The notes under the pieces are model-generated. The model ran no database searches. It saw only the letters and a list, made by a program, of their open reading frames with translations, and was not told the origin of the DNA. A DNA stretch of 63,966 nucleotides, the filler included. It is 8 parts of 8 records of this genome, joined end to end, with 100 filler letters (N's around TTAATTAATTAA, not from the genome) between each part and the next. Parts side by side here need not be neighbours in the genome. Positions count along the whole stretch, not along the records: positions 36,380 to 47,240 come from SRR20825010_1410; 7 more parts are not named here. The stretch is one strand, 5' to 3'. The translations under genes were made by a program, and so were the position numbers. Positions 8,464 through 60,470 of the stretch are shown here, one piece after another (the first letter of the stretch is position 1; every line of letters starts with the position of its first letter).

Positions 8464-8492
8464 GATTTCAGGTATAATTCCTGTCCCTGAGT

Positions 8493-8525
8493 TCCAGCGG
8501 GCAATAGCCGGCCCGCTGGATTTTT
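8493..8525 (+). terminator. Hairpin terminator after petC
   Basis: TCCAGCGGGC-8 nt-GCCCGCTGGA followed by TTTTT. Confidence 0.7.
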
Positions 8526-8571
8526 GCGTTTTTCAGGATCAATTCGGTTAGTCAAATCGTGAGGTAGTTCT

Positions 8572-9201
8572 ATGGGCGTTGTGACCAAGCGGTCATCAAT
8601 GACGTTTTTCTCGGACCCGGCCAGTCATTACAGCCACAGAGTCCGCATTGTGCTGGCAGAGAAGGGGGTAACGGTTGACGTCGTGAACGTTGATCCGGAT
8701 AACCCGCCTGGAGAGTTGGCTGACCTGAATCCGTACAATGCCCTGCCGACGCTGGTGGATCGTGACCTTGTGCTCTACGAGCCAAACATCATGATGGAGT
8801 ATCTGGACGAGCGTTTCCCGCATCCTCCATTGCTGCCGGTTTATCCTGTTGCGCGTGCGAACAGTCGCCTGATGATCCATCGCATCCAGAAAGACTGGTG
8901 TGGGTTGGTGGATCAGATTCTGGCTCAGCCCAACGCAAAGGCGTCGGATGCAGCCCGAAAAGAGCTTCGCGAAAGTTTGCTGGCCACGGCGCCGCTGTTC
9001 GGTGAGATGCCTTTTTTCCTGTCGGAAGAGTTCACGATCGTGGATTGCTGTATTGCTCCGATTCTGTGGCGCTTGCCGTCGCTGGGTATTGAGCTGAATG
9101 AAAAGCAGGCGAAGCCGCTTCAAAAGTACATGGATAGCATATTCAGTCGTGAAGGTTTCAAGGCGAGCCTGTCAGACCTGGAAGAAGATATCCGTAACTG
9201 A
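8572..9201 (+). CDS. sspA: Stringent starvation protein A
   Basis: GST fold; [12 protein letters not shown] and [21 protein letters not shown]. Confidence 0.96.
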
Positions 9202-13906: not shown

Positions 13907-14006
13907 NNNNNNNNNNNNNNNNNNNNNNNNNNNNNNNNNNNNNNNNNNNNTTAATTAATTAANNNNNNNNNNNNNNNNNNNNNNNNNNNNNNNNNNNNNN
14001 NNNNNN
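13907..14006. other. Artificial contig linker
   Basis: 44 N + TTAATTAATTAA + 44 N. Confidence 0.99.
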
Positions 14007-14737
14007 TTTCCCGATCCATCATACTGCCCGCAGGTCATCATCAGGGCATTGATACGCCGCGCCCTATGCGATGAGATCATCGCTGGAGCCCCCGGTATCA
14101 TAGCCAACATCCGACCCGACCGCGCCAACTGGTGGCAGGTCATCTCAATAGCGCATTGATGGGCGTAGGTGCCCAGAACCATTTCTGGCGGACATCTCAG
14201 ATTGTCGTGAGATTTCAGGTAGTAGAGCAAGGACGTATTGCGACTCGCCGTGGCCTTTTCTGACTCTGCCACCGCCTTGTCGATATGGATGTCGTCATCC
14301 TCTGCCGCCGCTCGCACCAGATACATGATCTCTGACAGTGCCTGACGCGGCTCACGTCCGCCCAGCAGCGCATCGGTCGTCACCAAGGCCCCCGCATTGA
14401 TGAACGGATTACGCGGCCGCCCCTGTTCCTGCTCCAGCAGAAAGATGCTGTCAAAGGCGGTGCCAGACGGCTCGCGCCCGACCCGCCGCCAAAGGTCATC
14501 GCCCAGACGGCCCAGCACGGCGGCCAATGAGAACACCTTTGAGATACTCTGGATCGAAAAGGGCACGTCCGCGTCCCCAGCCCCGATCTCTTGCCCATCG
14601 GCCAGACAGACCGCAACACCCACCTGCTCTGGGTCCACCTTGGCCAGTTCCGGGATGTAGTCCGCAGGCGCACCCCAGTCCTGCGCTGTTCGCGCCTCAG
14701 CCACCAGACGCCGTAGTTCCTCTGCCAGCCCCTGCAC
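14007..14737 (-). CDS. glsA: Glutaminase, partial (3' end in gap)
   Basis: ADYIPELA, FSIQSISK, VGREPSG, PRNPFINAGA and ALMMTCGQYDGSG. Confidence 0.93.
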
Positions 14738-14739
14738 CG

Positions 14740-15513
14740 CTATTCCGCCATGAAGCGTTTCATGACCACCGCCTCCTGATCTTCCATCAGGCGGCGAGCC
14801 ATTTGCATGTGTTCGCGCATGATTGCGCGCGCGGCCTCGGCATCACCGTCACGCAGCGCGGACACCAGACCTGCCTGATGATCACGTCCTTGCTTCCACA
14901 ACTCATGGTTCGGTTTGGAATACAGGCGTTTGTAGACTGTCAAATCCGCAAGAATCTGCGCCATGAAACCGATGACGAAGCCCAACAACGCATTGTCCGC
15001 AAACTCTGCCAACCGCGCATGAAATTTCAGTGAGGCAACATGTTGGGCGCGTTCTTCTTCGGCATCAGCGGCGGGGGCAGCATAGGCGGTCATAATCTGG
15101 TCCAGTTCCGCCAGTTGGTCCACGCTCAGCCGCCCGGCCAATGATGCGGCGAGGTCGGGTTCCAACGCGATGCGCACCTGATAGATGTCATCAATGGAAA
15201 TATTTCGGAAGTAGAAGTAGTTGCCCAGCAACGCATGGGCGCGGTCCTTGCCGACCTCACCGACAAAGCTGCCGCCGCCCGGCCCGGTCTTGGTCACCAC
15301 CAACCCTTGCGCCTGCAACAGGCGCATCGCTTCGCGGATTGTCCCTTTGGACATGGCGAACCGGGCGATCAGATCGGCCTCACCGGGCAATCGGTCGCCG
15401 GGCTGTAACCCACGCTCCACCACCCAGTCCTTGATCGCGTCCGCCACCAGAACGGGGCGCGACCGGCGGGCACGGCCCTGTGTCAGGGGCCCCGGGCCCT
15501 TGAGATTCGTCAT
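14740..15513 (-). CDS. GntR/FadR-family regulator with FCD domain
   Basis: wHTH LQPGDRLPGEADL...SKGTIREAMRLL...GPGGGSFV plus an FCD domain with FH and H residues. ATG at 15513 chosen. Confidence 0.9.
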   Translation of the reverse strand: MTNLKGPGPLTQGRARRSRPVLVADAIKDWVVERGLQPGDRLPGEADLIARFAMSKGTIREAMRLLQAQGLVVTKTGPGGGSFVGEVGKDRAHALLGNYFYFRNISIDDIYQVRIALEPDLAASLAGRLSVDQLAELDQIMTAYAAPAADAEEERAQHVASLKFHARLAEFADNALLGFVIGFMAQILADLTVYKRLYSKPNHELWKQGRDHQAGLVSALRDGDAEAARAIMREHMQMARRLMEDQEAVVMKRFMAE

Positions 15514-15551
15514 GAGAAACTGCGGTGTGTCGGCATCCCACCGATGCAACC

Positions 15552-15569
15552 AATTCATCATGATCAATT
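15552..15569. promoter_or_regulatory. Candidate GntR autoregulatory operator AATTCATCATGATCAATT
   Basis: 16 of 18 positions palindromic, about 40 nt upstream of the GntR start. Assignment to GntR is inference. Confidence 0.5.
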
Positions 15570-16123
15570 CAAGAGGCAATGCGCAGATCGGCACTGACCA
15601 TGGGGGTTTTGGACACATAAACCGTTTCGCACCCACAAACTCAAGGCGAAGGACCACCTGCAAAGGCTCCACCGTTCTTGGCAAGGAAGGAACAGATTGG
15701 CAATAAAACGGCGGATATTGACGTACGGCTATCATAGCCGCCGCCAACCCAACGACATCCCGATCTGACAGGTAAGGCCTGCCCCGTCACCTAAAGCTGA
15801 GGCGTTTCACATCAAAAATGACCTGTCGAGACATTTGACCTGACGCCTACCGCTGGCATCTTGCCAGCAGCCCTTTGCAACTGAACACCCCGAGGACAGA
15901 AGTGAGGACCGCTGAGATCAAAACCCTCGACTGTGTGCATCACCCTTGGGATCGACCATGGTAAGCAGCGGAACCGACAATTCTGCGATCGTCTGCGGAT
16001 GGTCGTCGATCCAACATGAGGACGTAATGCTGACCGCGTGCAAATGGCTGAAACAATCTGTCGCCTTGCCGCAAAACGACTTGCCGGTCGCCCCGGCTGA
16101 CTTGAAACCACAGGACATCTGAG

Positions 16124-23701: not shown

Positions 23702-23801
23702 NNNNNNNNNNNNNNNNNNNNNNNNNNNNNNNNNNNNNNNNNNNNTTAATTAATTAANNNNNNNNNNNNNNNNNNNNNNNNNNNNNNNNNNNNNNNNNNN
23801 N
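23702..23801. other. Artificial contig linker
   Basis: 44 N + TTAATTAATTAA + 44 N. Confidence 0.99.
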
Positions 23802-36279: not shown

Positions 36280-36379
36280 NNNNNNNNNNNNNNNNNNNNN
36301 NNNNNNNNNNNNNNNNNNNNNNNTTAATTAATTAANNNNNNNNNNNNNNNNNNNNNNNNNNNNNNNNNNNNNNNNNNNN
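36280..36379. other. Artificial contig linker
   Basis: 44 N + TTAATTAATTAA + 44 N. Confidence 0.99.
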
Positions 36380-36870
36380 TCCCAAGTGTAAATGCGGACT
36401 GTTCAGGGGTTTTGATTACAAAAGGAGTAACGAACGGTAGTGCAATGGACCAAACAGTGGCGTTTAACCGGGGTGTGGGTGGTGCCGTGGAAGGGCAGTC
36501 CAGCGAAACCTGGCTATTGAAATCCAATGGACAAAACCTCATGCTCTCTCCTGCCCGTGAACCGGAGTACATGAGTATTCCTGCCACTGGGGGAATGGTA
36601 AAAGTACATACAGAGTTCAACGATGCTGTGCTTTCTGAATCCAAATTGACGGCCTTGCGCGAGATGTCCAAAGCTCTCAATGAGGAATTGCCCAAGGTTG
36701 GGATCGCGGGTCCATACGATGTGGAACTTGGTTTTAAAGGTGAAGAAATCTGGCTGTTTCAGGTACGCCCATTTGTAGAAAACAAACGTGCAGCGGCTTC
36801 CGAATACCTGAGATCCATTACACCTACGCTCAACGAATCGCTCAAAATCTCTCTCGACACTGAATTATGA
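36380..36870 (+). CDS. PEP/pyruvate-binding (PPDK_N-type ATP-grasp) domain protein, C-terminal part
   Basis: Open from the contig edge. PSVNADCSGVLIT, RGVGGAVEG and PYDVELGF...IWLFQVRP correspond to the PEP-synthase nucleotide-binding motifs SGVxFT, GLGExVVxG and DIEW...LQARP. Confidence 0.75.
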
Positions 36871-38141
36871 ATGTGAAAATCAAGAATACACTAGTCGGAA
36901 GTTTGTGCGCATTGCTACTGACAGCATCCACCTCACCTTACCCCATCGACGGATATGAAGAGACGGGGATCAGGCGGTTGAAACGATTGGAATTGATCAT
37001 GGCTGGCGAGCTGACGGAGAACAAACCGCCAATCGGTGGGCAAAAATCCATCTGTGACATCCAGCTAAACCTCACCGGCCCAAAAGGTGATAGCCTATTG
37101 CATTTACCTTCGGTTGATCCTGATTTTCAAAAAGTAGTGAACAGTCTTTTTCCCAATCTGGATGAAAGCTACTCCTTAGCCATTCTCGACATTACCCCCG
37201 GAAAAAAAACACGTTATGCCACCCGCAAGGAAAATGGTCAGTATCAGCCGGGAAGCGTTGGAAAAATCGCTGTAGCTACCGGATTCTTTACGGAATTGGC
37301 CAAGATATATCCGGATTTTGAAGAACGTCAGGAGTTGCTACGCACCAAAATGGTAAGAGCAGGGAGGTGGGCCATGGCCGATGAACACACTGTTCCCATT
37401 TTTGATGTAGACACAAAAAAACTAGTGAAACGCACCGTGGTTGAATCGGATGTTTTCACACTTTATGAATGGCTCGATCACATGTTTTCAGTAAGTAATA
37501 ATGGTGCGGCAAGTGTCTGCTGGAGAGAAGCAGTACTGATGCGGGCTTTTGGAAAAGAGTATCCGGAGCTTACTGAGGAGCAAGGCAATGAATACTTTAA
37601 AACCACACCAAAATCCGAACTATCCAGCTTAGCGAACACCGTAGTAAACGAGCCCCTTAGAACACTTGACATTACAGAAAATGAGTGGCGTTTGGGTGCA
37701 TTTTTTACCAAAGGAGCAGGTTCTTTTATCCCTGCCAAAGGTGGAAGTATCGGCAGTCCCGTCGGACTTATGAAGTTTCTGGTGAAAATGGAGCAGGGAA
37801 AAGTGATTGATGCCGAAAGTAGTTTGGAAATCAAGCGAATGCTCTACATGACCGATAGACGAATCCGATATGCAGCCGCGCCTGCTCTCGCCACAGCCGC
37901 AGTTTATTTCAAGTCGGGCAGCTTATACAAATGCAAGGAAGAAGAAGGATATACCTGCGGGAAATACATGGGAAATGTCGACAACTACATGAACTCTGTA
38001 GCAATAGTAGAGCATACCGACGGTACCACCTATATGATCGTGATGATGAGCAACGTGCTCAAGAAAAACTCAGCGAGCGATCATGCCGCATTGGCCAGCA
38101 GCATCGATCGAATCGTGAAACCAAAATCAATCAAGAAATAA
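36867..38141 (+). CDS. Exported class-A-beta-lactamase-fold serine hydrolase
   Basis: Signal-like N-terminus, SxxK (GSVGK), SxN (SNN) and KSG triad. ATGA overlap with the upstream gene. Confidence 0.8.
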   Translation: MNVKIKNTLVGSLCALLLTASTSPYPIDGYEETGIRRLKRLELIMAGELTENKPPIGGQKSICDIQLNLTGPKGDSLLHLPSVDPDFQKVVNSLFPNLDESYSLAILDITPGKKTRYATRKENGQYQPGSVGKIAVATGFFTELAKIYPDFEERQELLRTKMVRAGRWAMADEHTVPIFDVDTKKLVKRTVVESDVFTLYEWLDHMFSVSNNGAASVCWREAVLMRAFGKEYPELTEEQGNEYFKTTPKSELSSLANTVVNEPLRTLDITENEWRLGAFFTKGAGSFIPAKGGSIGSPVGLMKFLVKMEQGKVIDAESSLEIKRMLYMTDRRIRYAAAPALATAAVYFKSGSLYKCKEEEGYTCGKYMGNVDNYMNSVAIVEHTDGTTYMIVMMSNVLKKNSASDHAALASSIDRIVKPKSIKK

Positions 38142-38151
38142 GTTTAATGTA

Positions 38152-40965
38152 TCAGGTCAGTGAGGTGACTACCTTCTCAGCCTGCTCCCTTACTTTTACA
38201 TTGGGGCTTTGTAAGAAAGGATGCACGAGCGAAGCATAATCCTTGATATCCAGGGCTAGTATTAGCTGAAAGACGGCCAATTTCAATTTGGCATCACGGC
38301 CCTGAAGCAACAATTCCAGACTTCTCTTTTCCTCAGGAACTTTCAATCTGAGATTGATCAGTGTTTCATTGGTGATGCTTTCAAACATGGCACTTTCAGC
38401 AATCGGAACCAGTGTCCGCTTGAGGGTTGGTTCCAGTAAGTTGTCCAGAAACTCGACCGCATTTATTCGCACATGTTCATTCACACTTTTAATTCCTTCA
38501 TAGACCGACATGACATCATCGGGCGGGTATTTTAGTCCAATCAGTCTGAATATCCGCTCCAGTGTACCGTCCAGTCTTCGCTCCATCAAGCTGACGAGAT
38601 TGGCTCGTGCAACCCGAACCTCATTAGTTTCTTCGCTGGGAAGAATCTGATTTTGTTTGTAAAAGATTGCAAGCGTATTTTTATACAACTCCGCTTCGTC
38701 AATGATGTAACCGATAATATCCTCTTTGCGAATTTTTAAATGAGGGAAATCCCGCTGCATCGTATGAAGCGACCGGAGTGCTTCCAATCGGAGCATTGCA
38801 TCAGCAGTCTCGAGCAAATTCAACAGTACTTTCACCGCTTTTTGGGCATCCATTCGCTCCAGTACACCGGGCAAGTGATTGATGATTTCCGATTTCACTG
38901 CTGGATTCATTGCCATCAGTTTCAAATAATCCGCTATCCCCACTCCATAATTCAGCAAAGCGTCTTGCGCGGTTCTTCTCGTTCCCTTTTCCACCAGAAA
39001 TAAAGTCAACTTCTCAATAAAATATTCACTCATGGTATACCCTGCGGAAAGAATTGCCTCTTTCACAATAGTGGCATTCTCATCTTGCAGGTGACGATCT
39101 ATTTCGGGATAAAGTGATTCAATATTGGCATGACCAATGGCACGGAGTATCATTGTTTTATATTGATCCTTTTCTTTCTCATCAGTGGTCAAATGGATAT
39201 AATCCATTTTTTCGCGAATGCGTAGTTCCACTTTCAACAGTTTTTTCATCTCCTCGTTGTTACGAGCCTCCTCTGCCAGCCCAACGAGGGCCGCTCCGCT
39301 GATCATCGGGTCAGCATGAGTCAAATACTGGTTGATTGTGCTTATTCGGTGTTCGGTTGTTTGCTTCAATAGCTGTGCAAAAGCTTTGAAGCGGACTTCC
39401 TGATCCGGGTCTCTGAGTAACACTTGAATAATGGATGGATCGACCGTCTTTTCCAGGTAATAAATACACTGCAAAGCTGCCATCCGAATCTTAGCTGAGT
39501 CGTGGCTCAAAAAGATAACCACATTGTCAAACATCCTTCTATCGGGGATTTGTTGCACCTTTCCCAGAACAAAAAGAATCTGATTTTCCGAACCCTGCTC
39601 CAATCCCTTTTTCAACCCACTCAAAACGGAAATATTATTAAAATCCATCAAGGGCTTGCTGGAGTGCTTATCCGCCTGAGTCAGTTTCGATTTGAACGAC
39701 TTGATGTATTCTTCCCGCACCTTCACCGCTACCCACACCCAGGCAATTACAATTAGTAATGTGAGCACACTGACAGATCTGACTGACAGATCAAGCCCAT
39801 TCACAAGAAAAATAAGCAGAAGCCCAGCAATACCTGTGGCCGACAAATCAACAAACACATCAATAAAGCTTTTGGTCTGACTTTTGATATTGGCCGGTAT
39901 AGGAAGCGAAAGCAATTCCGTAGCTGATTTGTTCACTGATTGTTTTACTGAAACTTCCCAAAGCTTGACGAACACACCCGCCCAAAGTACCGGGGCAAAA
40001 AGCAGAAGAACTGAGCCAACTATAATACCTCCCGGAAGTGCGAAAAGGGAAGTTCCCACACCGAAGGTTCCCACTATTCGTTTGGTCAAAAAAAGCTGAA
40101 TAATTAACGAAACGACGTTGAAGGTAGAAAACCAAAAGCCGAAAAATGCGGTCAACTCATCGGCATCCTGAAAATTATCTGACGCCACACTGCTGAACTG
40201 AAATTCGACCAGTTTAGAAATAACCACACTCAAGCCGATCACCAGCGATAAATACGTGAGATGCTTGGAGTTGCGAATCAGCCAAATGGGATGATTTTCA
40301 AAATCAGTCAATCGCTTTTTCTGACGGAAAGTGTTTAGTTGCTTAACGTGTTTCGTCCAGATGATTTTATTTAATGGCAGGCAGATACACAACAGAGCCG
40401 CCGCTAAGAAAAGAAGGTTGGTGCCGTCGATGTATGACGCAACAAGCGAAGTGACGTAACCACCGGCTACTCCACCTGCAATCGGCCCTGCACCAATAAA
40501 GCTAAACAGTCGCTTCGCTTCTCGTGCATCAAAGGCCAGATTGGCCATGATCCAAAACTGGGATGTGGTAAGCACTCCAAATATGGCTACTCCAATGTAG
40601 AGCACATAGAGCACAAACTTCTCAGCAATATTGAACTTGAGGAGTAAACCAATAACGATCAATGAAACAATGGAGACGACCAGTGTACTCACAGTCACTC
40701 TTTGGAGCGACTTGCTATCAAGTGCCCGGGAATAAACGGTAGATACGCCCATGGCACAAACAGCCACCAACACGAATACTACGGGAAGCTGCTCTATCCC
40801 GATTGTAGAAATAAATTGGGCGTTTACAACCGGCTTAATAATAAGAAGGGTGAAAATGATAAGAAAGATGTTGAGCTGCATAAGCAACACCCTCTCATAT
40901 TCACCCTCCCTGATATCAAATGTTTTGAGTAAAAAGCTTTTAAATAATGTGATTAGATGATCCAA
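38152..40965 (-). CDS. Npt/NTT(TLC)-like MFS nucleotide transporter fused to HEAT/ARM repeats
   Basis: About 420-aa multi-TM N-terminus (DIREGE, SQFWIMANLAFDAREAKRLF, KSFIDVFVD) followed by about 500 aa of helical HEAT-like repeats (LLRDPDQEVRFKA, RINAVEFLDNLL). TTG start. Confidence 0.8.
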   Translation of the reverse strand: MDHLITLFKSFLLKTFDIREGEYERVLLMQLNIFLIIFTLLIIKPVVNAQFISTIGIEQLPVVFVLVAVCAMGVSTVYSRALDSKSLQRVTVSTLVVSIVSLIVIGLLLKFNIAEKFVLYVLYIGVAIFGVLTTSQFWIMANLAFDAREAKRLFSFIGAGPIAGGVAGGYVTSLVASYIDGTNLLFLAAALLCICLPLNKIIWTKHVKQLNTFRQKKRLTDFENHPIWLIRNSKHLTYLSLVIGLSVVISKLVEFQFSSVASDNFQDADELTAFFGFWFSTFNVVSLIIQLFLTKRIVGTFGVGTSLFALPGGIIVGSVLLLFAPVLWAGVFVKLWEVSVKQSVNKSATELLSLPIPANIKSQTKSFIDVFVDLSATGIAGLLLIFLVNGLDLSVRSVSVLTLLIVIAWVWVAVKVREEYIKSFKSKLTQADKHSSKPLMDFNNISVLSGLKKGLEQGSENQILFVLGKVQQIPDRRMFDNVVIFLSHDSAKIRMAALQCIYYLEKTVDPSIIQVLLRDPDQEVRFKAFAQLLKQTTEHRISTINQYLTHADPMISGAALVGLAEEARNNEEMKKLLKVELRIREKMDYIHLTTDEKEKDQYKTMILRAIGHANIESLYPEIDRHLQDENATIVKEAILSAGYTMSEYFIEKLTLFLVEKGTRRTAQDALLNYGVGIADYLKLMAMNPAVKSEIINHLPGVLERMDAQKAVKVLLNLLETADAMLRLEALRSLHTMQRDFPHLKIRKEDIIGYIIDEAELYKNTLAIFYKQNQILPSEETNEVRVARANLVSLMERRLDGTLERIFRLIGLKYPPDDVMSVYEGIKSVNEHVRINAVEFLDNLLEPTLKRTLVPIAESAMFESITNETLINLRLKVPEEKRSLELLLQGRDAKLKLAVFQLILALDIKDYASLVHPFLQSPNVKVREQAEKVVTSLT

Positions 40966-40971
40966 CTTCTA

Positions 40972-41994
40972 TTACTGAGGTTTCAATTTTTTGTCCACTT
41001 CCAAAATTAGTTCTCTCATTATTTTTTCACCCTCTTCATCCTCGGCCAAAGCTACGATGATATACTTGCGCCAGCTTGGGCCCCATATCAATGCAGAATC
41101 AGAGTGGAAATTTTTCCAGGAACCTGATTTTCGAAATACCTTGGCTCTTGGGGCGATCTGATCTATGGTATTTACAAATTTATGATGCAATTCAGGATCA
41201 GCAAGATATGCCAGCATTTGTTTGGAACGATCGTAATTTACCAATTGCCCGAAAGCCAGCAGATAATAAAACCTGCAAACTTGTGTAGCACTTGCCCCAT
41301 GGCTAATGTTTTTCAACGGGTCGCCTTGTCTTGGCCCTGTGGAGGCATAGCGCTTCCCGACCCAAAGACCACCACCTGTTTCTTCATCATAAAAATCATA
41401 CTCAGGATCCTGCATCACTTCAGCAATTTTATCCAAGCCTACCAAATCAATCATCCGGGTGGTCGCTGCATTGTTGCTTTTGGCTATCATTAACCGCATG
41501 TCTGCTTTCACTTCTTCTGTTTCTTCCAGTTCTCCTTTCTCAATCGCATCGGTCGCGGCTAACAACACGGCTATCTTTGGCAAACTCGCAGCATACATCA
41601 TGTGACTGCCATTGATTCGCGCAAACCGTACTTTTTCGGGATTTCGTAAGTCCACCAACCCAACACAGAGTTTTTTGTTTTCGGCCAGATAAGACCATTT
41701 TTTATTCGAAGCTATAATTTCATCAAGGTCGGTTTGCAAATCATCATCAACCAACGAGCGCAAAGGCATAATCATAGAATCTGCAACCAGCATAGGTAAT
41801 CCGGGGGGCTGTTCATTTTTTGCAAAAGACGAAAGCGCAAACCATCCGGAATTTTTAAACTTCTGAAAACGATCGTTACCAAAATGGAACGCTACAGCAA
41901 TCATTGCTAGGATTGAAAGTGTAACAAGGACTTTACGGACAGGCGGAGCTAAAAACGGATGACCCATGCTAATCGCTTCGGTTATTTTTTTCAT
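40972..41994 (-). CDS. Membrane-anchored class-A-beta-lactamase-fold serine hydrolase
   Basis: N-terminal TM, SxxK (ASLPK), SNN and RKSGS. Confidence 0.82.
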   Translation of the reverse strand: MKKITEAISMGHPFLAPPVRKVLVTLSILAMIAVAFHFGNDRFQKFKNSGWFALSSFAKNEQPPGLPMLVADSMIMPLRSLVDDDLQTDLDEIIASNKKWSYLAENKKLCVGLVDLRNPEKVRFARINGSHMMYAASLPKIAVLLAATDAIEKGELEETEEVKADMRLMIAKSNNAATTRMIDLVGLDKIAEVMQDPEYDFYDEETGGGLWVGKRYASTGPRQGDPLKNISHGASATQVCRFYYLLAFGQLVNYDRSKQMLAYLADPELHHKFVNTIDQIAPRAKVFRKSGSWKNFHSDSALIWGPSWRKYIIVALAEDEEGEKIMRELILEVDKKLKPQ

Positions 41995-42232
41995 AGGATG
42001 AGGTAAGATGGCATATTCTATATGAGCGCTTTTTTGTTGACTTTCAGCTACATAGAGCTCTCAATTGAAGTCCTCATACGTTGGATTATTTATTTAGTTG
42101 TAAGGTAGTTGAAAAGAATTTTAAGCCACTGTTGGGGCATCCATAAGGAACATTTTTGCGCAGGAAAAAGTCATCTGGCTGCCGGATTTATCCGATGATA
42201 TAAAACAGCATTTTTAAATGGTTTTTTAGTTA

Positions 42233-42255
42233 TTATTTAGAATCTTTCTAAATAA
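42233..42255. promoter_or_regulatory. Iron-regulator (Fur-type) box 1: TTATTTAGAA-TCT-TTCTAAATAA
   Basis: Perfect 10-3-10 inverted repeat, 6 nt before a Bacteroidota -7 element TAGATTTG (42262-42269), upstream of the regulator-feoAB operon. Confidence 0.85.
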
Positions 42256-42304
42256 AGTCATTAGATTTGCATCGCTTCTCAAAGGCTCAATTCAATCGAC
42301 ATCA

Positions 42305-42943
42305 ATGAAAAAAGTATCAGTCATTCTTTCGGATTTTCAGTTTCTCACCAGAGAGGGATTGATCCATCTGATCGAAAAGAACGATGATTTTGAATTGCTC
42401 GGTGTAAACGATGGTCCGGAAGGACTATTGGAACTGGTTTTGGAGCATCACCCGGACGTATTGTTGCTCGATTATCAAAGCCAGGATCCGGTATTGCTTA
42501 CGCTGTTAAAACAAATCATACGCTCTCAGGCTACCAATGTGCTAATCATCACCAACGATAGCAACAAAGCTCATATCCAGAACCTCCTGAAGATGGGGAT
42601 AAAAGGAATCGTAACAAAAGGATGCAGCAAACTGGAAATTGTGAATGCCATGCATTCGGTTTCAAAAAACAATCGGTTTTTTTGCAACAAAGTACTTGAC
42701 CTGGTCATGGCCGGAGGACCGGAAGAAGAGCAGAACTGCCTCCCTACCGAGCTTTCTCCCCGAGAAAACGAAGTTTTGCAACTCATAACCAAAGGATTTA
42801 AAACCACTACTATCGCAGATCATTTGCATGTTAGTGTTCATACTATAAATTCGCACCGCAAAAACATCCTGAAAAAACTAAACCTCAAGTCTCCTGCAGA
42901 GCTTATTGTTTTTGCCATGGAGACTGGCTTGGTAAAGTCCTAA
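42305..42943 (+). CDS. NarL/LuxR-family response regulator
   Basis: Receiver domain (PDVLLLD) plus LuxR HTH LSPRENEVL...HTINSHRKNILKKL. Confidence 0.92.
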   Translation: MKKVSVILSDFQFLTREGLIHLIEKNDDFELLGVNDGPEGLLELVLEHHPDVLLLDYQSQDPVLLTLLKQIIRSQATNVLIITNDSNKAHIQNLLKMGIKGIVTKGCSKLEIVNAMHSVSKNNRFFCNKVLDLVMAGGPEEEQNCLPTELSPRENEVLQLITKGFKTTTIADHLHVSVHTINSHRKNILKKLNLKSPAELIVFAMETGLVKS

Positions 42944-42959
42944 ATCAAAAAGCAAGACA

Positions 42960-43175
42960 TTGACACTCGATCAACTCCCAACCAATCAACCGGCCACCAT
43001 CCACGCGATGGTTCGCAATAGCCTGACTCCCAAACTGGTTGAAATGGGATTGTATCCGGGCAAGGTGGTGAAGGTGATCTTCCGGGCCCCATTCGGCGAT
43101 CCCATTGCAATAGATATTGAAGGCTACACGCTTTCGCTTCGCAAGAGTGAAGCTTCCAAAATCGAGCTTGTTTGA
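42960..43175 (+). CDS. feoA: Ferrous iron transport protein A
   Basis: KLVEMGLYPG, APFGDPI and LSLRKSEA. Confidence 0.93.
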   Translation: MTLDQLPTNQPATIHAMVRNSLTPKLVEMGLYPGKVVKVIFRAPFGDPIAIDIEGYTLSLRKSEASKIELV

Positions 43176-43176
43176 G

Positions 43177-45135
43177 ATGAAGGTAGCATTAGTAGGGAAT
43201 CCCAATTCTGGTAAAACGTCTATTTTTAATCACCTGACTGGTTTAAATCAGAAAGTCGGGAATTACCCTGGAATCACAGTAGACAAGAAGTTTGGAAACC
43301 TAACCGGAACCAGGGATATCCAGATTCTCGATTTGCCGGGCACCTACAGTATCTACCCCAAATCACGAGACGAAGAGTTGGTTACAGAAGTTCTTAGTAA
43401 CAAAGCACATCCTGATCATCCTGATTTGGTAGTAGTAGTATTGGATATTACCAATCTCGAACGGAACCTATTTCTTTATTCGCAAATTCATGACATGGGA
43501 CTGCCCGTAATAGCGGTGCTAAACATGATGGATTTGGCATCAAGAAAAGGGCTGTCAGTTGATCCAAACAAACTCAATGAGCTTTTTGGAGCGGTGAATA
43601 CCATACCCGTGAATGCCCGCAAGAAAGACGAAGTGGCTCTTGTGAAAGAAGCTATCCTTCACTATGAACCATCGGATTTTACAACAACACAGCCCATTCT
43701 CGAAGGGGAATTTAACGCTAAAAAATTTGCAACTCTAGACTCCAATGGACAGGAGGAGTGGGCGGAAAAGCGCTATCGAAAAATCAACCAGATGCTGTCT
43801 TTTTGCCTGAAAAAAAGTGAACTGAAAGACAGTAAAACGCTGAAGTTTGATAAAATCATCACGCATCCGATACTTGGCTATGCGTTTTTTCTAGGACTAC
43901 TATTCCTGATTTTTCAGGCCATATACGCATGGGCTGAATGGCCCATGGATCTCATAGACTCAGTTTTCCTTACCGCAAGCCGGTTGGTCAAAACCAATTT
44001 GCCAGCTGGGGTTTTGACCAACCTAATTGCCGAAGGTTTGATCCCTGGTTTGGGGGGAGTGATCATTTTTATTCCACAAATTGCCCTGCTGTTTAGTTTC
44101 ATCTTCTTCATGGAAGAAAGTGGCTACATGGCAAGGGTGGTTTTTATTTTGGACAAACTCATGCGTCCTTTCGGCCTGAACGGAAGAAGTGTTGTACCAC
44201 TCATTTCGAGCGTTGCATGCGCCATTCCAGCGATCATGGCTACCAGAACGATCGACAACTGGAAAGAGCGCTTAATCACCATCATGGTCACACCATTGAT
44301 GAGTTGCTCGGCCAGGCTTCCGGTTTATACACTGCTCATTGCACTCACTATTCCGGATCAGACCATTGGTATCTTCAACCTGAAAGGACTGGTCTTGATG
44401 GGTCTTTACCTCATTGGATTAATCGCCGCATTGCTAGCTGCTTTTGCTTTTAAGTTGATTATCAAATCCAAGCAAATGAGCTTTCTGGTAATGGAGCTTC
44501 CCAGCTACAAAATGCCACGATGGAACAATTTGCTACTGACCATTTGGGAAAAGGTTCAGGTGTTCGTTTGGGAAGCCGGGAAGGTAATTGTAGCCATTTC
44601 CATAGTATTGTGGGTGCTCGCTTCCTATGGCCCTCCAGGTAGGATCGACGAAGCTGTAAGCCAAATCAGCATTCCGCAAAACGAAATGGCGCTGGAGGAA
44701 TACGAGAATCAGGTTGCATCGGTGAGTTTATCCAATTCCTATATCGGAATATTGGGCCATAGCATAGAGCCCGTGATCCGACCCTTGGGCTACAACTGGC
44801 AGATTGGTATCGCGTTGATTACCTCCTTTGCAGCCAGAGAAGTTTTTGTTGGATCAATGGCCACCATATACAGTGTTGGGGAAGATTTTGAGGAAAACGT
44901 ATCGCTCATTGAGCGCATGCGAAATGAGAAAAACCCAAATACCGGAACAAAAGTCTACAGCATGGCATCCGGTCTGTCGTTAATGGTTTTTTATGCATTT
45001 GCAATGCAATGCATGAGTACTTTGGCCATCGTTTTCCGGGAAACTAAAAGCTGGAAATGGCCGTTGATACAGTTGATTTATATGTCAGGGCTGGCCTATC
45101 TGGCGGCACTATTTACTTTTCAAATGCTACAATGA
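43177..45135 (+). CDS. feoB: Ferrous iron transport protein B
   Basis: GNPNSGKT, VGNYPGITV, DLPGTYS and NMMD GTPase motifs, a polytopic C-terminus, and MSCSARLPVY. Confidence 0.97.
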   Translation: MKVALVGNPNSGKTSIFNHLTGLNQKVGNYPGITVDKKFGNLTGTRDIQILDLPGTYSIYPKSRDEELVTEVLSNKAHPDHPDLVVVVLDITNLERNLFLYSQIHDMGLPVIAVLNMMDLASRKGLSVDPNKLNELFGAVNTIPVNARKKDEVALVKEAILHYEPSDFTTTQPILEGEFNAKKFATLDSNGQEEWAEKRYRKINQMLSFCLKKSELKDSKTLKFDKIITHPILGYAFFLGLLFLIFQAIYAWAEWPMDLIDSVFLTASRLVKTNLPAGVLTNLIAEGLIPGLGGVIIFIPQIALLFSFIFFMEESGYMARVVFILDKLMRPFGLNGRSVVPLISSVACAIPAIMATRTIDNWKERLITIMVTPLMSCSARLPVYTLLIALTIPDQTIGIFNLKGLVLMGLYLIGLIAALLAAFAFKLIIKSKQMSFLVMELPSYKMPRWNNLLLTIWEKVQVFVWEAGKVIVAISIVLWVLASYGPPGRIDEAVSQISIPQNEMALEEYENQVASVSLSNSYIGILGHSIEPVIRPLGYNWQIGIALITSFAAREVFVGSMATIYSVGEDFEENVSLIERMRNEKNPNTGTKVYSMASGLSLMVFYAFAMQCMSTLAIVFRETKSWKWPLIQLIYMSGLAYLAALFTFQMLQ

Positions 45136-45278
45136 TGGTGCAAACTGCAATCGTATTATTGGTTTTTCTGATCGCCTCCTACTTCCTCATTAAGCGGATT
45201 TACAAGAGTTTTTTCAGCAAAAACCACGATTGCGAAGGCTGTGCCGTTTCTCAAATTGCAAAGAAACACCATCACTAG
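45132..45278 (+). CDS. FeoB-associated Cys-rich small membrane protein
   Basis: 48 aa: TM helix, CEGC and a terminal HHH. ATGA overlap with the feoB stop. Confidence 0.8.
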   Translation: MMVQTAIVLLVFLIASYFLIKRIYKSFFSKNHDCEGCAVSQIAKKHHH

Positions 45279-45343
45279 TAGTAGTGATAAATTCTACTAC
45301 GCCTAGCTATTGAATGGGTGGAACCAAATCAGGTACTTTTGCA

Positions 45344-45366
45344 TTATCTAGAAACATTCTAAATAA
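45344..45366. promoter_or_regulatory. Iron-regulator box 2: TTATCTAGAA-ACA-TTCTAAATAA
   Basis: One arm mismatch relative to box 1; lies just after a -7 element TACTTTTG (45334-45341) and 8 nt before the ATG at 45375. Confidence 0.85.
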
Positions 45367-45374
45367 GTTTCACA

Positions 45375-45527
45375 ATGTTTGATTACCACGTAGAAGAAGA
45401 GCTATCCGCTTGTTCATCCTTCAAAACCGAAGGAATGATTAAAATGGATGAGTGTGTCTTCAAAAAATGTTGTGAGAAATTCAAAAAGAAAAAGAAGAAG
45501 CGTTGTAAGAAGTGTCCGGAAAGATGA
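45375..45527 (+). CDS. Unannotated 50-aa Cys/Lys-rich protein with a CC-x10-C-x2-CP motif
   Basis: MFDYHVEEELSACSSFKTEGMIKMDECVFKKCCEKFKKKKKKRCKKCPER*. It has its own promoter and operator, and its stop overlaps the next start (ATGA at 45524-45527). Below the ORF-track cut-off. Confidence 0.75.
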   Translation: MFDYHVEEELSACSSFKTEGMIKMDECVFKKCCEKFKKKKKKRCKKCPER

Positions 45528-45880
45528 TCGATCAGCAAGAATTAAGCCTTTCAACCAACCTCGTATTCCAAACCTCAAACACCTCACTCTCTCAATGTGA
45601 CCGGTCGGAAAAATTTGTGCTTAACATTTTCGATCAAACCATCGAATTGAGCGTTTGCGCATTGATTGCCTTCAAGAAAAAAATCCAGGATGTTGACTTG
45701 GCTGGAATGTTCGCCTGTGATCATTCAGGAATCGAAATCATACGTCTTGCGTACTGCGACCGTATCTTCGTTTTGACCATACAGGAAATATTGGAGCTGC
45801 GCGACCTGTTCTCAGGTTCCTTCGCCATGTTAGAGTTGAATAGTGTTATCCACAAGGCCATCATCCGAAAGCGAGCTTAA
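45524..45880 (+). CDS. Hypothetical protein (118 aa, four Cys; possibly DUF6686-like)
   Basis: Translationally coupled to the 50-aa ORF; sits between the feo operon and ferritin. The family guess is from memory only. Confidence 0.7.
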   Translation: MIDQQELSLSTNLVFQTSNTSLSQCDRSEKFVLNIFDQTIELSVCALIAFKKKIQDVDLAGMFACDHSGIEIIRLAYCDRIFVLTIQEILELRDLFSGSFAMLELNSVIHKAIIRKRA

Positions 45881-45882
45881 GC

Positions 45883-45905
45883 TTACTTAGAAAGATTATA
45901 AATAC
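45883..45905. promoter_or_regulatory. Iron-regulator box 3 (degenerate): TTACTTAGAA-AGA-TTATAAATAC
   Basis: Three arm mismatches relative to box 1; 74 nt upstream of the ferritin start. Confidence 0.65.
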
Positions 45906-45979
45906 TAGCCGATTTTGACTAATCTGGCACTTTTCTGTTTCCTTTGTTGTATTAAATACGATCAAAAGACGAATTACAC

Positions 45980-46513
45980 ATGAAAGATATATTGAGAAGA
46001 CATCAGGTGCTGAAAGAGGAAATAGTAAATGCACTCAACAAGCAGGTGAAAATGGAGGCGCAATCTTCTGCAGCGTATCTGGCCATGGCGGCATGGTGCG
46101 ACATGGAAGGGTATGACAACAGCGCTGACTACTTTTTCAAGCAAGCAGAAGAAGAGCGCAAGCATCAGCTGAAGTTATTCCATTATCTGACCGACATGGA
46201 GTGCAGAGCCATCTCCCCTACTGTCGGTGAGTCTGAGCATGATTTTTCATCCCTCAGAAGTGTCTTCGAGTCTGCTTTGGAGCACGAAATAGCCGTAACC
46301 GACTCCATTCACGATATCGTGAGAGAATGCAGGAAACAAGGCGATATCGCTACTGAAGAGTTTATGAGATGGTTTGTGCAGGAGCAAATCGAAGAAGAGT
46401 TTGTAGCACGACGTGTACTTGAGTTGTTCGACGTATTAGGTGAAGACAAAATCGCTCTTGGAATGTTTGAAGAGAGAGTACTCCACGTAGCTTATGATGG
46501 TGGAGAGGCTTAA
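45980..46513 (+). CDS. ftnA: Non-heme ferritin
   Basis: LNKQVKME..SS..YLAMA, EEERKH, ALEHE and WFVQEQIEEE ferroxidase residues. Confidence 0.93.
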   Translation: MKDILRRHQVLKEEIVNALNKQVKMEAQSSAAYLAMAAWCDMEGYDNSADYFFKQAEEERKHQLKLFHYLTDMECRAISPTVGESEHDFSSLRSVFESALEHEIAVTDSIHDIVRECRKQGDIATEEFMRWFVQEQIEEEFVARRVLELFDVLGEDKIALGMFEERVLHVAYDGGEA

Positions 46514-46536
46514 GCCCTTCTAAACAAAGAAATATT

Positions 46537-46572
46537 AAAAAGGAGAATCGGTAACGGTTCTCCTTTTTTTTT
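46537..46572. terminator. Bidirectional terminator after ferritin
   Basis: AAAAAGGAGAATCG-GTAA-CGGTTCTCCTTTTTTTTT. Confidence 0.88.
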
Positions 46573-46637
46573 GTTCTAAAATTAGAAAAGCAGACCAATT
46601 GGCCTGCTCTTTTATCTACTATATCGCTTAAAACATG

Positions 46638-47240
46638 TTATCGTCTGATAATACGTTGTGTAATCGTCTGATCCTTTGTTTTGATAGTCAACATATAGGT
46701 TCCCTGTGAGAGATGTGCCAAGCTAATCCTATCACTAGCGGAGTTAAAATCCATCTTCTGAATATTTCCTGATAGATCAAGAAGGCACACTGAAAGGATT
46801 GGATCTGCACTTGCAATCATCACTACATCATTAGTCGGGTTCGGATAAACTTTAAAATCCGTCAAATCATCAACCGATAGAGCCTCCTCCACATCTATTA
46901 AGGAAACTGTAACAATCGCCAACGCCCTTAGGCTACCATCAGTCACCTCGACGGTAAGTATGTATTGTTCCTTGATTTCAAAATCCAACAATGAGCTGTT
47001 CGACACAGTCAATTCACCAGATTCAGATAGTTCGAACACGCCATTGTCATTTCCAGATAAAATAGAAAAAGTCAATGGGTCTGCATCCGTTGCAAGAATA
47101 GTCCCTACAACCGTACCGTTTGCACTGTTCTCTTCTATGGTAAAAGTCTGATCGGCAATCTCAGGTGCTTGGTTAAGCGTTTCATCCACATCAGTGACAT
47201 TCACCGTTACCGTTGCGGAAGCTGTTAACTCTCCGTCCGA
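46638..47240 (-). CDS. Cadherin-domain surface protein with a T9SS type-A C-terminal sorting domain, partial
   Basis: NQAPEI, EENSANGTVVG, LDFE and VTDG cadherin motifs; C-terminal VYPNPT...DLSG...GTYML...RII. Supports a Bacteroidota origin. Confidence 0.9.
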   Translation of the reverse strand, partial: SDGELTASATVTVNVTDVDETLNQAPEIADQTFTIEENSANGTVVGTILATDADPLTFSILSGNDNGVFELSESGELTVSNSSLLDFEIKEQYILTVEVTDGSLRALAIVTVSLIDVEEALSVDDLTDFKVYPNPTNDVVMIASADPILSVCLLDLSGNIQKMDFNSASDRISLAHLSQGTYMLTIKTKDQTITQRIIRR

Positions 47241-47340
47241 NNNNNNNNNNNNNNNNNNNNNNNNNNNNNNNNNNNNNNNNNNNNTTAATTAATTAANNNN
47301 NNNNNNNNNNNNNNNNNNNNNNNNNNNNNNNNNNNNNNNN
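47241..47340. other. Artificial contig linker
   Basis: 44 N + TTAATTAATTAA + 44 N. Confidence 0.99.
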
Positions 47341-54449: not shown

Positions 54450-54549
54450 NNNNNNNNNNNNNNNNNNNNNNNNNNNNNNNNNNNNNNNNNNNNTTAATTA
54501 ATTAANNNNNNNNNNNNNNNNNNNNNNNNNNNNNNNNNNNNNNNNNNNN
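54450..54549. other. Artificial contig linker
   Basis: 44 N + TTAATTAATTAA + 44 N. Confidence 0.99.
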
Positions 54550-60370: not shown

Positions 60371-60470
60371 NNNNNNNNNNNNNNNNNNNNNNNNNNNNNN
60401 NNNNNNNNNNNNNNTTAATTAATTAANNNNNNNNNNNNNNNNNNNNNNNNNNNNNNNNNNNNNNNNNNNN
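60371..60470. other. Artificial contig linker
   Basis: 44 N + TTAATTAATTAA + 44 N. Confidence 0.99.

Follow-up and report, generated by a model that had tools for sequence, protein, structure and literature searches.

A conserved four-gene bacterial module joins a putative NTT-family carrier, a dikinase-like ATP-grasp protein and two PBP-A-like enzymes

The window analyzed here, a stretch of 63,966 nucleotides, consists of eight concatenated contigs with an N44-TTAATTAATTAA-N44 spacer at each joint. Four neighboring genes (Table 1) occupy the start of a 10,861-bp contig (36380..47240) with a GC content of 0.436 (43.6%), compared with 0.508 to 0.626 for the other seven contigs; across the spacer that ends at 36379, GC drops from ~0.6 to ~0.44. 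Because this contig begins at 36380, directly after the spacer, the ATP-grasp gene lacks its 5′ part, a loss that an earlier note on this DNA had recorded and that the contig edge now explains. The ATG of hydrolase 1 overlaps the dikinase TGA as ATGA (36867-36870), and a gap of 10 bp (38142-38151) separates hydrolase 1 from the convergent carrier gene. These features, the 6-bp spacing of the second gene pair and the previously assigned coordinates were all reproduced on the window sequence. The intergenic region beyond hydrolase 2 probably contains the promoter of the hydrolase 2/carrier pair. Across it lies an unrelated LuxR-type response-regulator gene; neither this regulator nor FeoB and ferritin, the other flanking genes in the window, are conserved next to the module in 80 genome loci.

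Table 1. Coordinates of the four genes, the carrier domains and the adjoining features in the window.
Feature	Position	Strand	Remark
Assembly spacer, N44 + TTAATTAATTAA + N44	36280..36379	.	Joins two unrelated contigs
ATP-grasp fragment, last 162 codons of dikinase-like gene	36382..36870	+	3′ fragment
Hydrolase 1, 424 aa	36867..38141	+	Start overlaps dikinase stop
Carrier, NTT-like with HEAT	38152..40965	-	Converges on hydrolase 1
Carrier HEAT-repeat domain, aa ~441-937, with stop codon	38152..39645	-	HEAT_2 match
Carrier membrane domain, aa 1 to ~440, 12 predicted helices	39646..40965	-	Putative divergent NTT/TLC family
Hydrolase 2, 340 aa	40972..41994	-	6 bp upstream of carrier, same strand
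Divergent intergenic region, AT-rich, GC ~0.35	41995..42304	.	Between hydrolase 2 and LuxR-type regulator gene

All four genes occur together in 71 of 80 Bacteroidota/Rhodothermales loci, the remaining 9 being cut by contig ends, and 60 of the 80 keep the strict canonical order. Our phylogenetic profile, drawn from one sample of 301 genomes of the phylum, places orthologs of all four genes in an identical set of 8 genomes. The dikinase N-domain is present in these 8; so is hydrolase 1, which at E ≤ 1e-5 matches nothing further except a 38-bit fragment in one of them; hydrolase 2 orthologs score at least 404 bits there and just 25 to 31 bits in 9 other genomes; and the 8 best carrier matches (at least 500 bits) come from this same set. 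A second set of 80 metagenome loci, with GC from 0.39 to 0.75, covered other lineages. Nineteen of these loci have at least 4.5 kb on both sides: the four genes are complete in 13, hydrolase 1 is present in all 19, and at least 5 gene orders are found. Where the NTT gene is missing from metagenome loci, other neighbors were observed, among them an S13 DD-carboxypeptidase (L082) and an ABC exporter (L140). Among the source names of family members are Acidobacteriota, Gemmatimonadota, Planctomycetota, Desulfobacterales and Gammaproteobacteria.

ORF clustering of the 80 metagenome loci returned the four families and shadow ORFs only, with no fifth conserved gene, and in some Flavobacteriaceae and other loci, where ~1 kb of sequence separates hydrolase 1 from the carrier, this insert is heterogeneous. 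Thus, the four neighboring genes form one conserved and previously undescribed bacterial module, as the earlier note had supposed; the linkage persists under rearranged orders, and our literature searches found no published description of it. A gene-order accident frozen within one phylum, with no shared function behind it, was already disfavored and is extremely improbable, since presence and absence of the four genes agree perfectly in the 301 genomes and the association survives the variety of gene orders and GC contents described above. In a search for anti-phage defense systems (PADLOC), the carrier gave a generic HEAT-ARM match only, and the other three proteins gave none.

The helices and K/R-rich central loop of the carrier were assigned manually, using the sequence and its hydropathy profile. 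Pfam TLC (PF03219) does not match the window carrier at E ≤ 10, and only MFS_1 appears (E 0.21). Because Pfam calls no TLC/NTT domain on this protein, NTT kinship had to come from profile comparison. The carrier family profile, run against the whole PDB (E ≤ 1), matches only NTT structures (9j3n, 9e-14; 9j3j, 1.9e-13), and module-linked carriers of other lineages lie above the Pfam TLC gathering score in 8 of 8 cases (25.9-70.7 bits versus 21). The carrier is thus probably a divergent member of the NTT/TLC family; of the earlier description as an NTT-like MFS transporter, the NTT kinship holds at the level of the family profile, and the window protein itself carries no Pfam TLC call.

The C-terminal domain of the carrier matches HEAT_2 (PF13646; 56.3 bits versus 27.7) and HEAT (PF02985; 36.9 versus 23.5), and by profile also matches alpha-Rep/HEAT structures. 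The 12-helix topology, combined with the positive-inside rule, predicts a cytoplasmic position for it. The long HEAT tail noted earlier is therefore present in the window carrier, but it does not belong to the core of the module, as most other-lineage partners lack it. Carriers in the module occur as plain NTT, as NTT-HEAT (window, L130) and as NTT-HEAT-cNMP_binding (L101) proteins. Other NTT-HEAT subfamilies, without a dikinase, are found in 17 of the 301 genomes of the phylum.

The ATP-grasp fragment in the window covers the C-terminal part of a PPDK_N domain (PF01326; E 2.2e-5, 24.4 bits versus a cut-off of 27, profile positions 175-318 of 328) and shares 62-74% identity with the C-terminal ends of proteins of 966-985 aa at the closest loci. 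The full architecture was read from a Marinoscillum homolog (L001:5101-8001). Full-length homologs of ~970 aa start with a predicted signal peptide and an all-alpha N-domain, followed by a putative swivel His domain and, at the C-terminus, the PPDK_N ATP-grasp domain; two of them score 85.9 and 85.6 bits against PF01326 (gathering score 27; positions 4-318 of 328), and PPDK_N is called in 20/20 Bacteroidota members and 7/7 divergent members. The swivel region alone reaches 22.7 bits against PF00391 (E 7.5e-5), just under the cut-off of 23.1. This domain is called (E ≤ 0.01) in 7 of 20 Bacteroidota and 5 of 7 divergent members, is listed in precomputed annotation of several relatives, and includes the motif GIATVxEGNxVSHVQLLARNLGIPN with its invariant His (VSHVQLLAR). 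Against the PDB, the family profile matches the PEP synthase 8a8e (E 6.5e-27) and the entries 5hv1 and 5fbs (~1e-15).

The earlier note had raised the question of an ordinary cytoplasmic PEP synthase, and the architecture answers it in the negative. None of the 27 dikinase members scanned matches PEP-utilizers_C, the PEP/pyruvate TIM barrel; lacking this barrel, the protein is not a PEP synthase. PEP synthase models scored far below their cut-offs (TIGR01418, 72.1 bits versus 739.75; NF005057, 85 versus 598), and the ATP-grasp domain is C-terminal. Many family members carry the database name phosphoenolpyruvate synthase, which is misleading given the absent barrel, the different domain order, the subthreshold scores and the signal peptide, and which the architecture corrects. 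Two further identities were rejected: rifamycin-inactivating phosphotransferase (equivalogs NF041857/NF000283, 60 bits versus 999 and 33.7 versus 1700) and alpha-glucan water dikinase (PF22973, 16.1 bits versus 27, E 0.0084; no carbohydrate-binding module). Residues 1-459 match nothing in Pfam at E ≤ 5, carbohydrate-binding modules included. Foldseek against the PDB gave no fold relative of the N-domain (best E 0.19, TM ≤ 0.16), and the highest Z of a wide VIA search, 9.4 to generic helical bundles, falls short of what is meaningful for helical proteins. The N-domain may represent a novel all-alpha fold, an assignment based on the absence of relatives, which is no proof. In the nearest ESM Atlas clusters (scores 0.84 and 0.76), made up of hypothetical proteins 548 and 692 aa long, 17-26% of members carry PF00391, which we take as no more than a lead.

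Export of the dikinase was judged from hydropathy, the Q-rule and Cys pairs. By a simple hydropathy test, 63 of 68 complete homologs have a hydrophobic 12-mer at the N-terminus. K/R precedes this core, and small residues follow it together with a Gln conserved in at least 90% of the sequences. With this Gln placed after the hydrophobic core, the leader agrees with the Q-rule that PMC5837995 and PMC10653852 describe for signal peptidase I substrates of Bacteroidetes. The leader is followed by an invariant Cys55/Cys67 pair, and a hydrophobic leader begins all 7 of the divergent members inspected. The dikinase thus appears to act outside the cytoplasm. Since this localization was derived by heuristics, the segment might instead be an uncleaved anchor, with the bulk of the enzyme in the cytoplasm using cytoplasmic ATP and the NTT linked in another way, for example through nucleotide salvage. 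We regard this as highly improbable: the residues around the core resemble those of cleaved Bacteroidota signals, the Cys pair and the retention of the leader in distant lineages argue against it, and two co-inherited partners, the hydrolases, are themselves predicted to be exported. Complex prediction with dikinase residues 27-585 and hydrolase 1 residues 22-421 (score 0.01, mark 0.34) carries no weight on binding in either direction.

Both hydrolases have the class A beta-lactamase/PBP-A fold. The motifs S130-V-G-K133, S210-N-N212 and K349-S-G351 of hydrolase 1 and S137-L-P-K140, S173-x-N175 and K289-S-G291 of hydrolase 2 are invariant in the family alignments, and an N-terminal hydrophobic segment was detected by the same kind of simple hydropathy test in 75/79 and 67/69 complete homologs, respectively. 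The SxxK, SNN and KSG motifs and the exported appearance of both proteins had been pointed out before, and the present analysis agrees. The N-terminus of hydrolase 2 is predicted to be either a membrane anchor or a signal. PF13354 (cut-off 22) matches hydrolase 1 with 27.3 bits and hydrolase 2 with 73.4 bits (E 2.2e-20). The AF2 model of hydrolase 1 (pLDDT 91.4) matches PBP-A and class A beta-lactamases with Foldseek E ~1e-9 and, by VIA, with Z 24-25.5 and rmsd 2.5-2.8 Å over ~250-260 residues; relative to these enzymes it has ~50 extra N-terminal residues and ~80 inserted residues. A Cys356/Cys364 pair is also present. BLASTP finds no significant match between the two hydrolases; hhalign aligns their motifs with a probability of 77.6% (E 1.9e-5), which suggests that they are remote paralogs. 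An invariant Glu of hydrolase 1, E273 (E-W-R-L-G), sits in the loop after the SxN helices and from its spacing may be equivalent to Glu166 of the omega-loop ExxLN. At the position aligned with it, hydrolase 2 lacks an invariant Glu.

These folds invite a reading in which the module inactivates a drug or natural product in the periplasm, the dikinase phosphorylating an antibiotic in the manner of rifampin phosphotransferase and the hydrolases opening a lactam or ester. The dikinase profile resembles 5hv1/5fbs, which the PDB table names phosphoenolpyruvate synthase and which we take to be the Listeria rifampin phosphotransferase; the NCBIfam rifamycin phosphotransferase model gives the 60 bits noted above; and the patchy, cross-phylum spread recalls transferable accessory genes. 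That score is, however, far under the cut-off, and with 59-78% identity across orders, hydrolase 1 is conserved to a degree unusual in a resistance enzyme. By sequence, the hydrolase profiles reach no beta-lactamase in the PDB except 4ewf (E 0.0056), and the hydrolase 1 family profile reaches no solved relative. The module has no conserved mobile-element genes next to it. We consider drug inactivation, which would be a special case of the explanation preferred below, distinctly unlikely.

The explanation we prefer, with a confidence only slightly short of even, is that the carrier feeds ATP to the exported dikinase and that the four genes constitute one envelope module. ATP transport, its direction, the phosphotransfer and the substrate are the steps we infer. 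The exported ~970-aa phosphohistidine dikinase would take ATP in its C-terminal ATP-grasp domain, phosphorylate its own swivel His (His528 in the Marinoscillum homolog) and pass the phosphate to an acceptor on the N-domain, as in glucan-water dikinase and rifampin phosphotransferase. Because this reaction would take place outside the cytoplasm, we propose dedicated delivery of ATP by the inner-membrane NTT-family carrier, with the AMP/ADP and phosphate left by the reaction as the simplest counter-substrates. [quoted passage not shown] The two exported PBP-A/class A-type serine enzymes would make the acceptor or process it further, and the acceptor would probably be a D-Ala-D-Ala-type peptide or peptidoglycan fragment, or else a lactam- or ester-containing natural product.

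Several points count against ATP feeding. Given its small size, ATP could leak through porins. At 5 of the 19 well-flanked metagenome loci there is no NTT gene within ~9 kb, and the N-domain, having no known fold relative, gives no clue to the acceptor. ATP export would also be a new property for this kind of carrier, as PamNTT1, a biochemically dissected bacterial NTT, is described in PMC1951785 as biased toward ATP import and unable to run a harmful reverse mode. The flow might accordingly be the opposite, with the NTT carrier importing a nucleotide, or a phosphorylated or adenylated product, released or scavenged by the exported enzymes in a salvage or uptake route, and the dikinase drawing on extracellular ATP or another donor. 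Characterized NTTs are importers or uptake-biased exchangers (PMC1951785, PMC5381601). The patchy spread (~3% of sampled genomes) would also suit an accessory nutrient function. Yet an ATP-grasp/swivel-His enzyme consumes ATP, and free-living bacteria of sediments and the sea are not known to have a steady external supply of ATP. ORF clustering at the 80 metagenome loci moreover shows no solute-binding protein, TonB-dependent receptor or SusC/D conserved beside the module. We therefore judge import unlikely.

ATP feeding, if correct, would assign a first function to NTT(-HEAT) carriers of free-living bacteria. NTT carriers are known from energy parasites and plastids and count as a hallmark of energy parasitism. 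What makes free-living bacteria retain them, often as HEAT-repeat fusions, is a question posed in the sole family survey (PMC5381601). The module gives this question a testable context, in which the carrier is co-inherited with a putative ATP-grasp/phosphohistidine enzyme bearing a predicted signal peptide. Should the carrier supply ATP, the periplasm would host ATP-driven phosphotransfer, against standard models and the textbook rule of a periplasm free of ATP-driven chemistry. Stated in full, and put forward slightly more tentatively than ATP feeding itself, the proposal is that free-living diderms of several phyla may run a dedicated periplasmic ATP line, in which an NTT exports ATP for AMP/ADP and phosphate and so powers an exported dikinase that, alongside two PBP-A-like enzymes, phosphorylates a substrate in the envelope or outside the cell. 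The module also brings forward three protein families without a characterized member: the putatively exported dikinase with its candidate new N-domain fold and two PBP-A-like enzyme families, which in the 301-genome sample are found only alongside the dikinase.

Among known systems, the plant dikinases GWD and PWD consist of a substrate-binding N-terminal part, a phosphohistidine domain and a C-terminal PPDK_N domain, without the PEP/pyruvate TIM barrel. The dikinase of the module shares this domain order and likewise lacks the barrel, and it gives the weak PF22973 match. It differs in its all-alpha N-domain without a carbohydrate-binding module, its bacterial origin, its signal peptide and its co-inheritance with an NTT carrier and two serine enzymes. 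Rifampin phosphotransferase (RPH) and the prodigiosin ligases PigC and RedH are cytoplasmic enzymes with an N-terminal ATP-grasp domain and a C-terminal swivel domain. These small-molecule dikinases resemble the module protein in combining an ATP-grasp domain with a swivel His domain, putative in the module protein, without a TIM barrel (60, 67.7 and 55 bits against the NCBIfam models for RPH, PigC and RedH; equivalog cut-offs 999-1350), whereas the module protein has its ATP-grasp domain at the C-terminus and carries a signal peptide. PEP synthase and pyruvate phosphate dikinase give the best ATP-grasp sequence match (8a8e; NF004881, 95 bits) and would have phospho-His chemistry in common with it; they are set apart by PEP-utilizers_C, by domain order, by module scores of 72-95 bits against cut-offs of 598-883, and by the signal peptide of the module protein. 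The NTT-HEAT and NTT-HEAT-cNBD fusions surveyed by Major, Embley and Williams in 2017 have the same architecture as the module carriers, and the window subfamily differs from them in being too divergent for Pfam TLC. That survey (PMC5381601) gives the function of NTT-HEAT fusions in free-living bacteria as unknown and reports a neighboring cNBD gene, with no dikinase or hydrolase context in the passages on these fusions and their neighbors. Finally, hydrolase 1 shares its fold and the SxxK, SxN and KxG motifs with PBP-A of Thermosynechococcus and with class A beta-lactamases (TLA, PER, CTX-M, KPC). It is set apart from them by an identity of just 11-17%, by its N-terminal extension and insertions, and by its restriction, across the 301 genomes, to those that bear the dikinase.

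The module under study (36380..41994) comprises genes for a phosphohistidine dikinase-like protein with an ATP-grasp part (hereafter dikinase), two serine hydrolases, and an NTT-type carrier with a HEAT tail. An earlier note had described two close, convergent gene pairs with one overlap and short gaps, and the coordinates on the contig confirm this layout. Because the contig begins at 36380, the dikinase gene lacks its 5′ part. The window consists of eight contigs with spacers of the form N44-TTAATTAATTAA-N44 in between; since separate contigs were joined, the sequence to the left of 36380 is not context, and adjacent contigs are not genomic context for one another. The remaining seven contigs have GC contents of 0.508 to 0.626, and with an overall spread of 0.436–0.626, the record probably represents a draft bin whose origin is mixed or uneven. 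The genes of the module contig point to an origin in Bacteroidota; they include a cadherin-repeat protein truncated at the contig end, of which the C-terminal portion and its type IX secretion sorting domain are present. Among the matches listed, the nearest relatives of all four genes are from Marinoscillum (64–77% amino-acid identity).

Features of the module contig and spacers of the window
Feature	Position	Strand	Remarks
Module contig	36380..47240		10,861 bp; GC 0.436; module begins at contig base 1
Dikinase (ATP-grasp) fragment	36382..36870	+	162 codons; end of PPDK_N ATP-grasp part
Hydrolase 1	36867..38141	+	start overlaps the fragment's stop as ATGA
Carrier	38152..40965	-	937 aa; convergent with hydrolase 1, 10-bp gap
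Hydrolase 2	40972..41994	-	6 bp upstream of carrier
Remainder of module contig	42305..47204		LuxR-type response regulator, FeoB, unassigned 122-aa ORF, ferritin, cadherin-repeat protein tail
Spacers	5510-5609, 13907-14006, 23702-23801, 36280-36379, 47241-47340, 54450-54549, 60371-60470

A scan for hydrolase 1 found at least 564 encoded relatives among the 600 pattern matches listed, and from these matches we fetched 80 loci on one-genome-per-species contigs of Cytophagales, Saprospirales/Chitinophagales, Flavobacteriales, marine Bacteroidales, and Rhodothermales. The full four-gene set was present in 71 loci; in the other nine, the contig stops short of where the missing gene could lie. The arrangement was identical to that of the window in 60 of the 80. 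Heterogeneous, lineage-specific inserts of ~1 kb separate hydrolase 1 from the carrier in seven loci, an insert separates the dikinase from hydrolase 1 in one, two have the carrier, alone or paired with hydrolase 2, at a distance of 6 to 8 kb, and two deviate only as ORF-caller artefacts. The genes that flank the module in the window (LuxR regulator, FeoB, 122-aa ORF, ferritin, and cadherin protein) were not conserved beside it in these 80 loci. The four genes are one unit. Among its native hosts are the non-pathogenic genera Marinoscillum, Roseivirga, and Arenibacter, which have cultured strains. Some Flavobacteriaceae (loci L039, L048, L050, and L053) carry an extra gene in the hydrolase 1/carrier interval for a ~312-aa multipass membrane protein, whose N-terminal sequence pattern may be TerC-like.

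Phylogenetic profiling employed 301 genomes drawn evenly across the phylum. The dikinase N-domain was found in eight of them, and hydrolase 1 occurred in exactly those eight and in none other at E ≤ 1e-5. Hydrolase 2 orthologues scoring at least 404 bits were confined to the same eight genomes, nine further genomes giving beta-lactamase-like matches of only 25 to 31 bits. The eight top carrier matches (at least 500 bits) again came from these genomes, and 17 more genomes hold other NTT-like genes (60–371 bits to the carrier profile) without a dikinase. The module is thus rare (~3% of sampled species), and its four genes are passed on or lost together. The dikinase-free genomes with NTT-like or NTT-HEAT genes are G005, G107, G215, G263, and 13 others; G107 has several NTT-like copies on a single contig. 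In G278, one of the eight genomes with the module and one in which it is spread over two contigs, the carrier gene (C11:13164-14477, minus strand) contains an in-frame TGA, which may be a sequencing error or mark a decaying copy.

Beyond the phylum, the dikinase N-domain profile, run against 1.84 billion representative proteins, matched 658 clusters, with all full-length members measuring ~960 to 1040 aa. Source names of divergent dikinases include Bryobacteraceae and other Acidobacteriota, Gemmatimonadota, Planctomycetota, Desulfobacterales, and Gammaproteobacteria; all seven that we read retain the hydrophobic leader as well as the RGPY..WFC.DG, His, and ATP-grasp motifs. HMMs from Bacteroidota alignments were used to scan 80 metagenome loci around divergent dikinases (GC 0.39–0.75), and all four genes were present in 26. 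Of the 19 loci whose flanks extend at least 4.5 kb to either side of the dikinase, 13 had all four genes, two both hydrolases only, one hydrolase 1 and the carrier, and three hydrolase 1 only. Hydrolase 1 is thus the constant partner (19/19), ahead of hydrolase 2 (15/19) and the carrier (14/19). The position of the carrier gene varies: it can precede the dikinase, follow hydrolase 1 immediately, or sit downstream of hydrolase 2 on the opposite strand. In some loci the two gene pairs are divergent. That the association is kept despite this shuffled gene order argues for function rather than inherited order, and we give almost no credence to a four-gene linkage without shared function. Where no carrier is nearby, the neighbours are otherwise unrelated. 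Two such loci lacking a nearby NTT gene are single cases that may hint at the substrate and at an alternative supply route: L082 has an S13 D-Ala-D-Ala carboxypeptidase gene after hydrolase 2 (14441-15994, plus strand), and L140 has an ABC exporter gene overlapping the dikinase start (7034-8809, plus strand).

Full-length dikinase homologues in close loci measure 966 to 985 aa and have four parts. The first is a leader: a hydrophobic 12-mer lies within the first 70 residues in 63 of 68 complete proteins, with K/R ahead of the hydrophobic core and a Gln (at least 90% conserved) behind it. An invariant Cys55/Cys67 pair follows. Judged from sequence, the leader appears to follow the "Q-rule" pattern of Bacteroidetes signal peptidase I substrates (PMC5837995, PMC10653852). 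Most of the proteins that miss the 12-mer are start-codon miscalls. We consider a dikinase facing the cytoplasm improbable. The N-domain of ~440 residues had no Pfam match. Its confident AlphaFold2 model is all-alpha with one small hairpin (pLDDT 87.6; pTM 0.83), and no convincing relative emerged from Foldseek or from a full scan of representative PDB structures. The third part is a putative phosphohistidine swivel domain: the region alone scored just under the PF00391 cut-off (E 7.5e-5; 22.7 against 23.1 bits), and this family was detected in 7 of the 20 close members scanned and in 5 of the 7 distant ones. The motif GIATVxEGNxVSHVQLLARNLGIPN has an invariant His (His528 in the Marinoscillum homologue). 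The C-terminal PPDK_N ATP-grasp part is complete (85.9 bits), and the profile matched the PEP synthase structure 8a8e (E 6.5e-27) and the structures 5hv1/5fbs (~1e-15). We rejected PEP synthase as the identity of the cut gene because the PEP/pyruvate barrel is absent from the full-length homologues and every NCBIfam equivalog score falls short of its cut-off by an order of magnitude. Plant glucan-water dikinases run from acceptor domain to His domain to nucleotide domain, and the module dikinase matches this order.

On the carrier of the window, Pfam recognized HEAT repeats only and no TLC domain. At E ≤ 1, a membrane-domain profile built from 20 homologues matched exactly two entries of the entire PDB, the NTT ADP/ATP carriers 9j3n (9e-14) and 9j3j (1.9e-13), with shared motifs that include FW..AN....EAKR.(F/Y)..G.GA and K..K..IDV. 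All eight module-linked metagenome carriers tested pass the Pfam TLC gathering score. Most such carriers are 430 to 520 aa long and without a HEAT tail, which makes the NTT membrane domain the core and the tail a lineage-specific addition. The carrier of metagenome locus L130 is an NTT-HEAT protein, and that of L101 (14557-17850, minus strand) is an NTT-HEAT-cNMP_binding fusion of 1098 aa. These architectures are those listed by Major et al. (PMC5381601), whose three-domain fusion is tied to the module by the L101 carrier. Hydropathy and sequence reading give 12 helices; the loop that joins helices 6 and 7 is rich in K/R, which would put the HEAT domain and the two termini on the cytoplasmic side.

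Hydrolase 1 is 59 to 78% identical across orders; conservation this strong speaks for a substrate that is itself conserved or for a close partnership with another protein. Its profile matched no solved structure by sequence. The AlphaFold2 model (pLDDT 91.4) resembles PBP-A of Thermosynechococcus and class A beta-lactamases (VIA Z 24–25.5; rmsd 2.5–2.8 Å over ~250–260 residues; 11–17% identity; Foldseek E ~1e-9), from which it differs by insertions and by ~50 additional residues at the N-terminus. Its invariant residues include the SVGK, SxN, and KSG motifs and the pair Cys356/Cys364; E273 within E-W-R-L-G is invariant as well and may be the omega-loop base. Hydrolase 2 (Pfam Beta-lactamase2, 73.4 bits) retains SLPK, SxN, and KSG, and hhalign identifies it as a remote paralogue of the first hydrolase (E 1.9e-5, motifs in register). 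Its N-terminus is predicted to be a membrane anchor in the lineage of the window and, in Flavobacteriia, a cleavable Q-rule leader.

Of the four products, three are predicted to be extracytoplasmic, one of which appears built to use ATP. The fourth, the carrier, is homologous to the NTT proteins, to our knowledge the sole transporter family that carries ATP or other nucleotides across bacterial inner membranes. In the simplest mechanism, which we put forward tentatively at somewhat less than an even chance, the carrier would swap cytoplasmic ATP for the AMP or ADP and phosphate that remain after the dikinase reaction, the dikinase would phosphorylate an acceptor bound by its novel N-domain, and the two PBP-A-like enzymes would act on the same substrate before or after it. 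Against ATP supply stands the quarter of well-flanked distant loci in which the carrier is not nearby. ATP could also leak through porins, a further point against it. The characterized bacterial NTT is reported to be biased to import (PMC1951785), which likewise weighs against supply. A carrier importing the product or a scavenged nucleotide is unlikely in our estimate. A xenobiotic substrate, which would make the module a periplasmic inactivation island, is a special case of the ATP-supply mechanism that we regard as rather less likely still. The patchy, multiphylum spread of the module argues for an accessory role.

Databases name the module proteins "PEP/pyruvate-binding domain-containing protein," "phosphoenolpyruvate synthase," "serine hydrolase," or "hypothetical protein," and open-access papers and bioRxiv yielded no description of the module or of an exported PPDK_N-type dikinase. 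The system that the four genes form is without a described counterpart in that literature, and its parts are new variants of known families.
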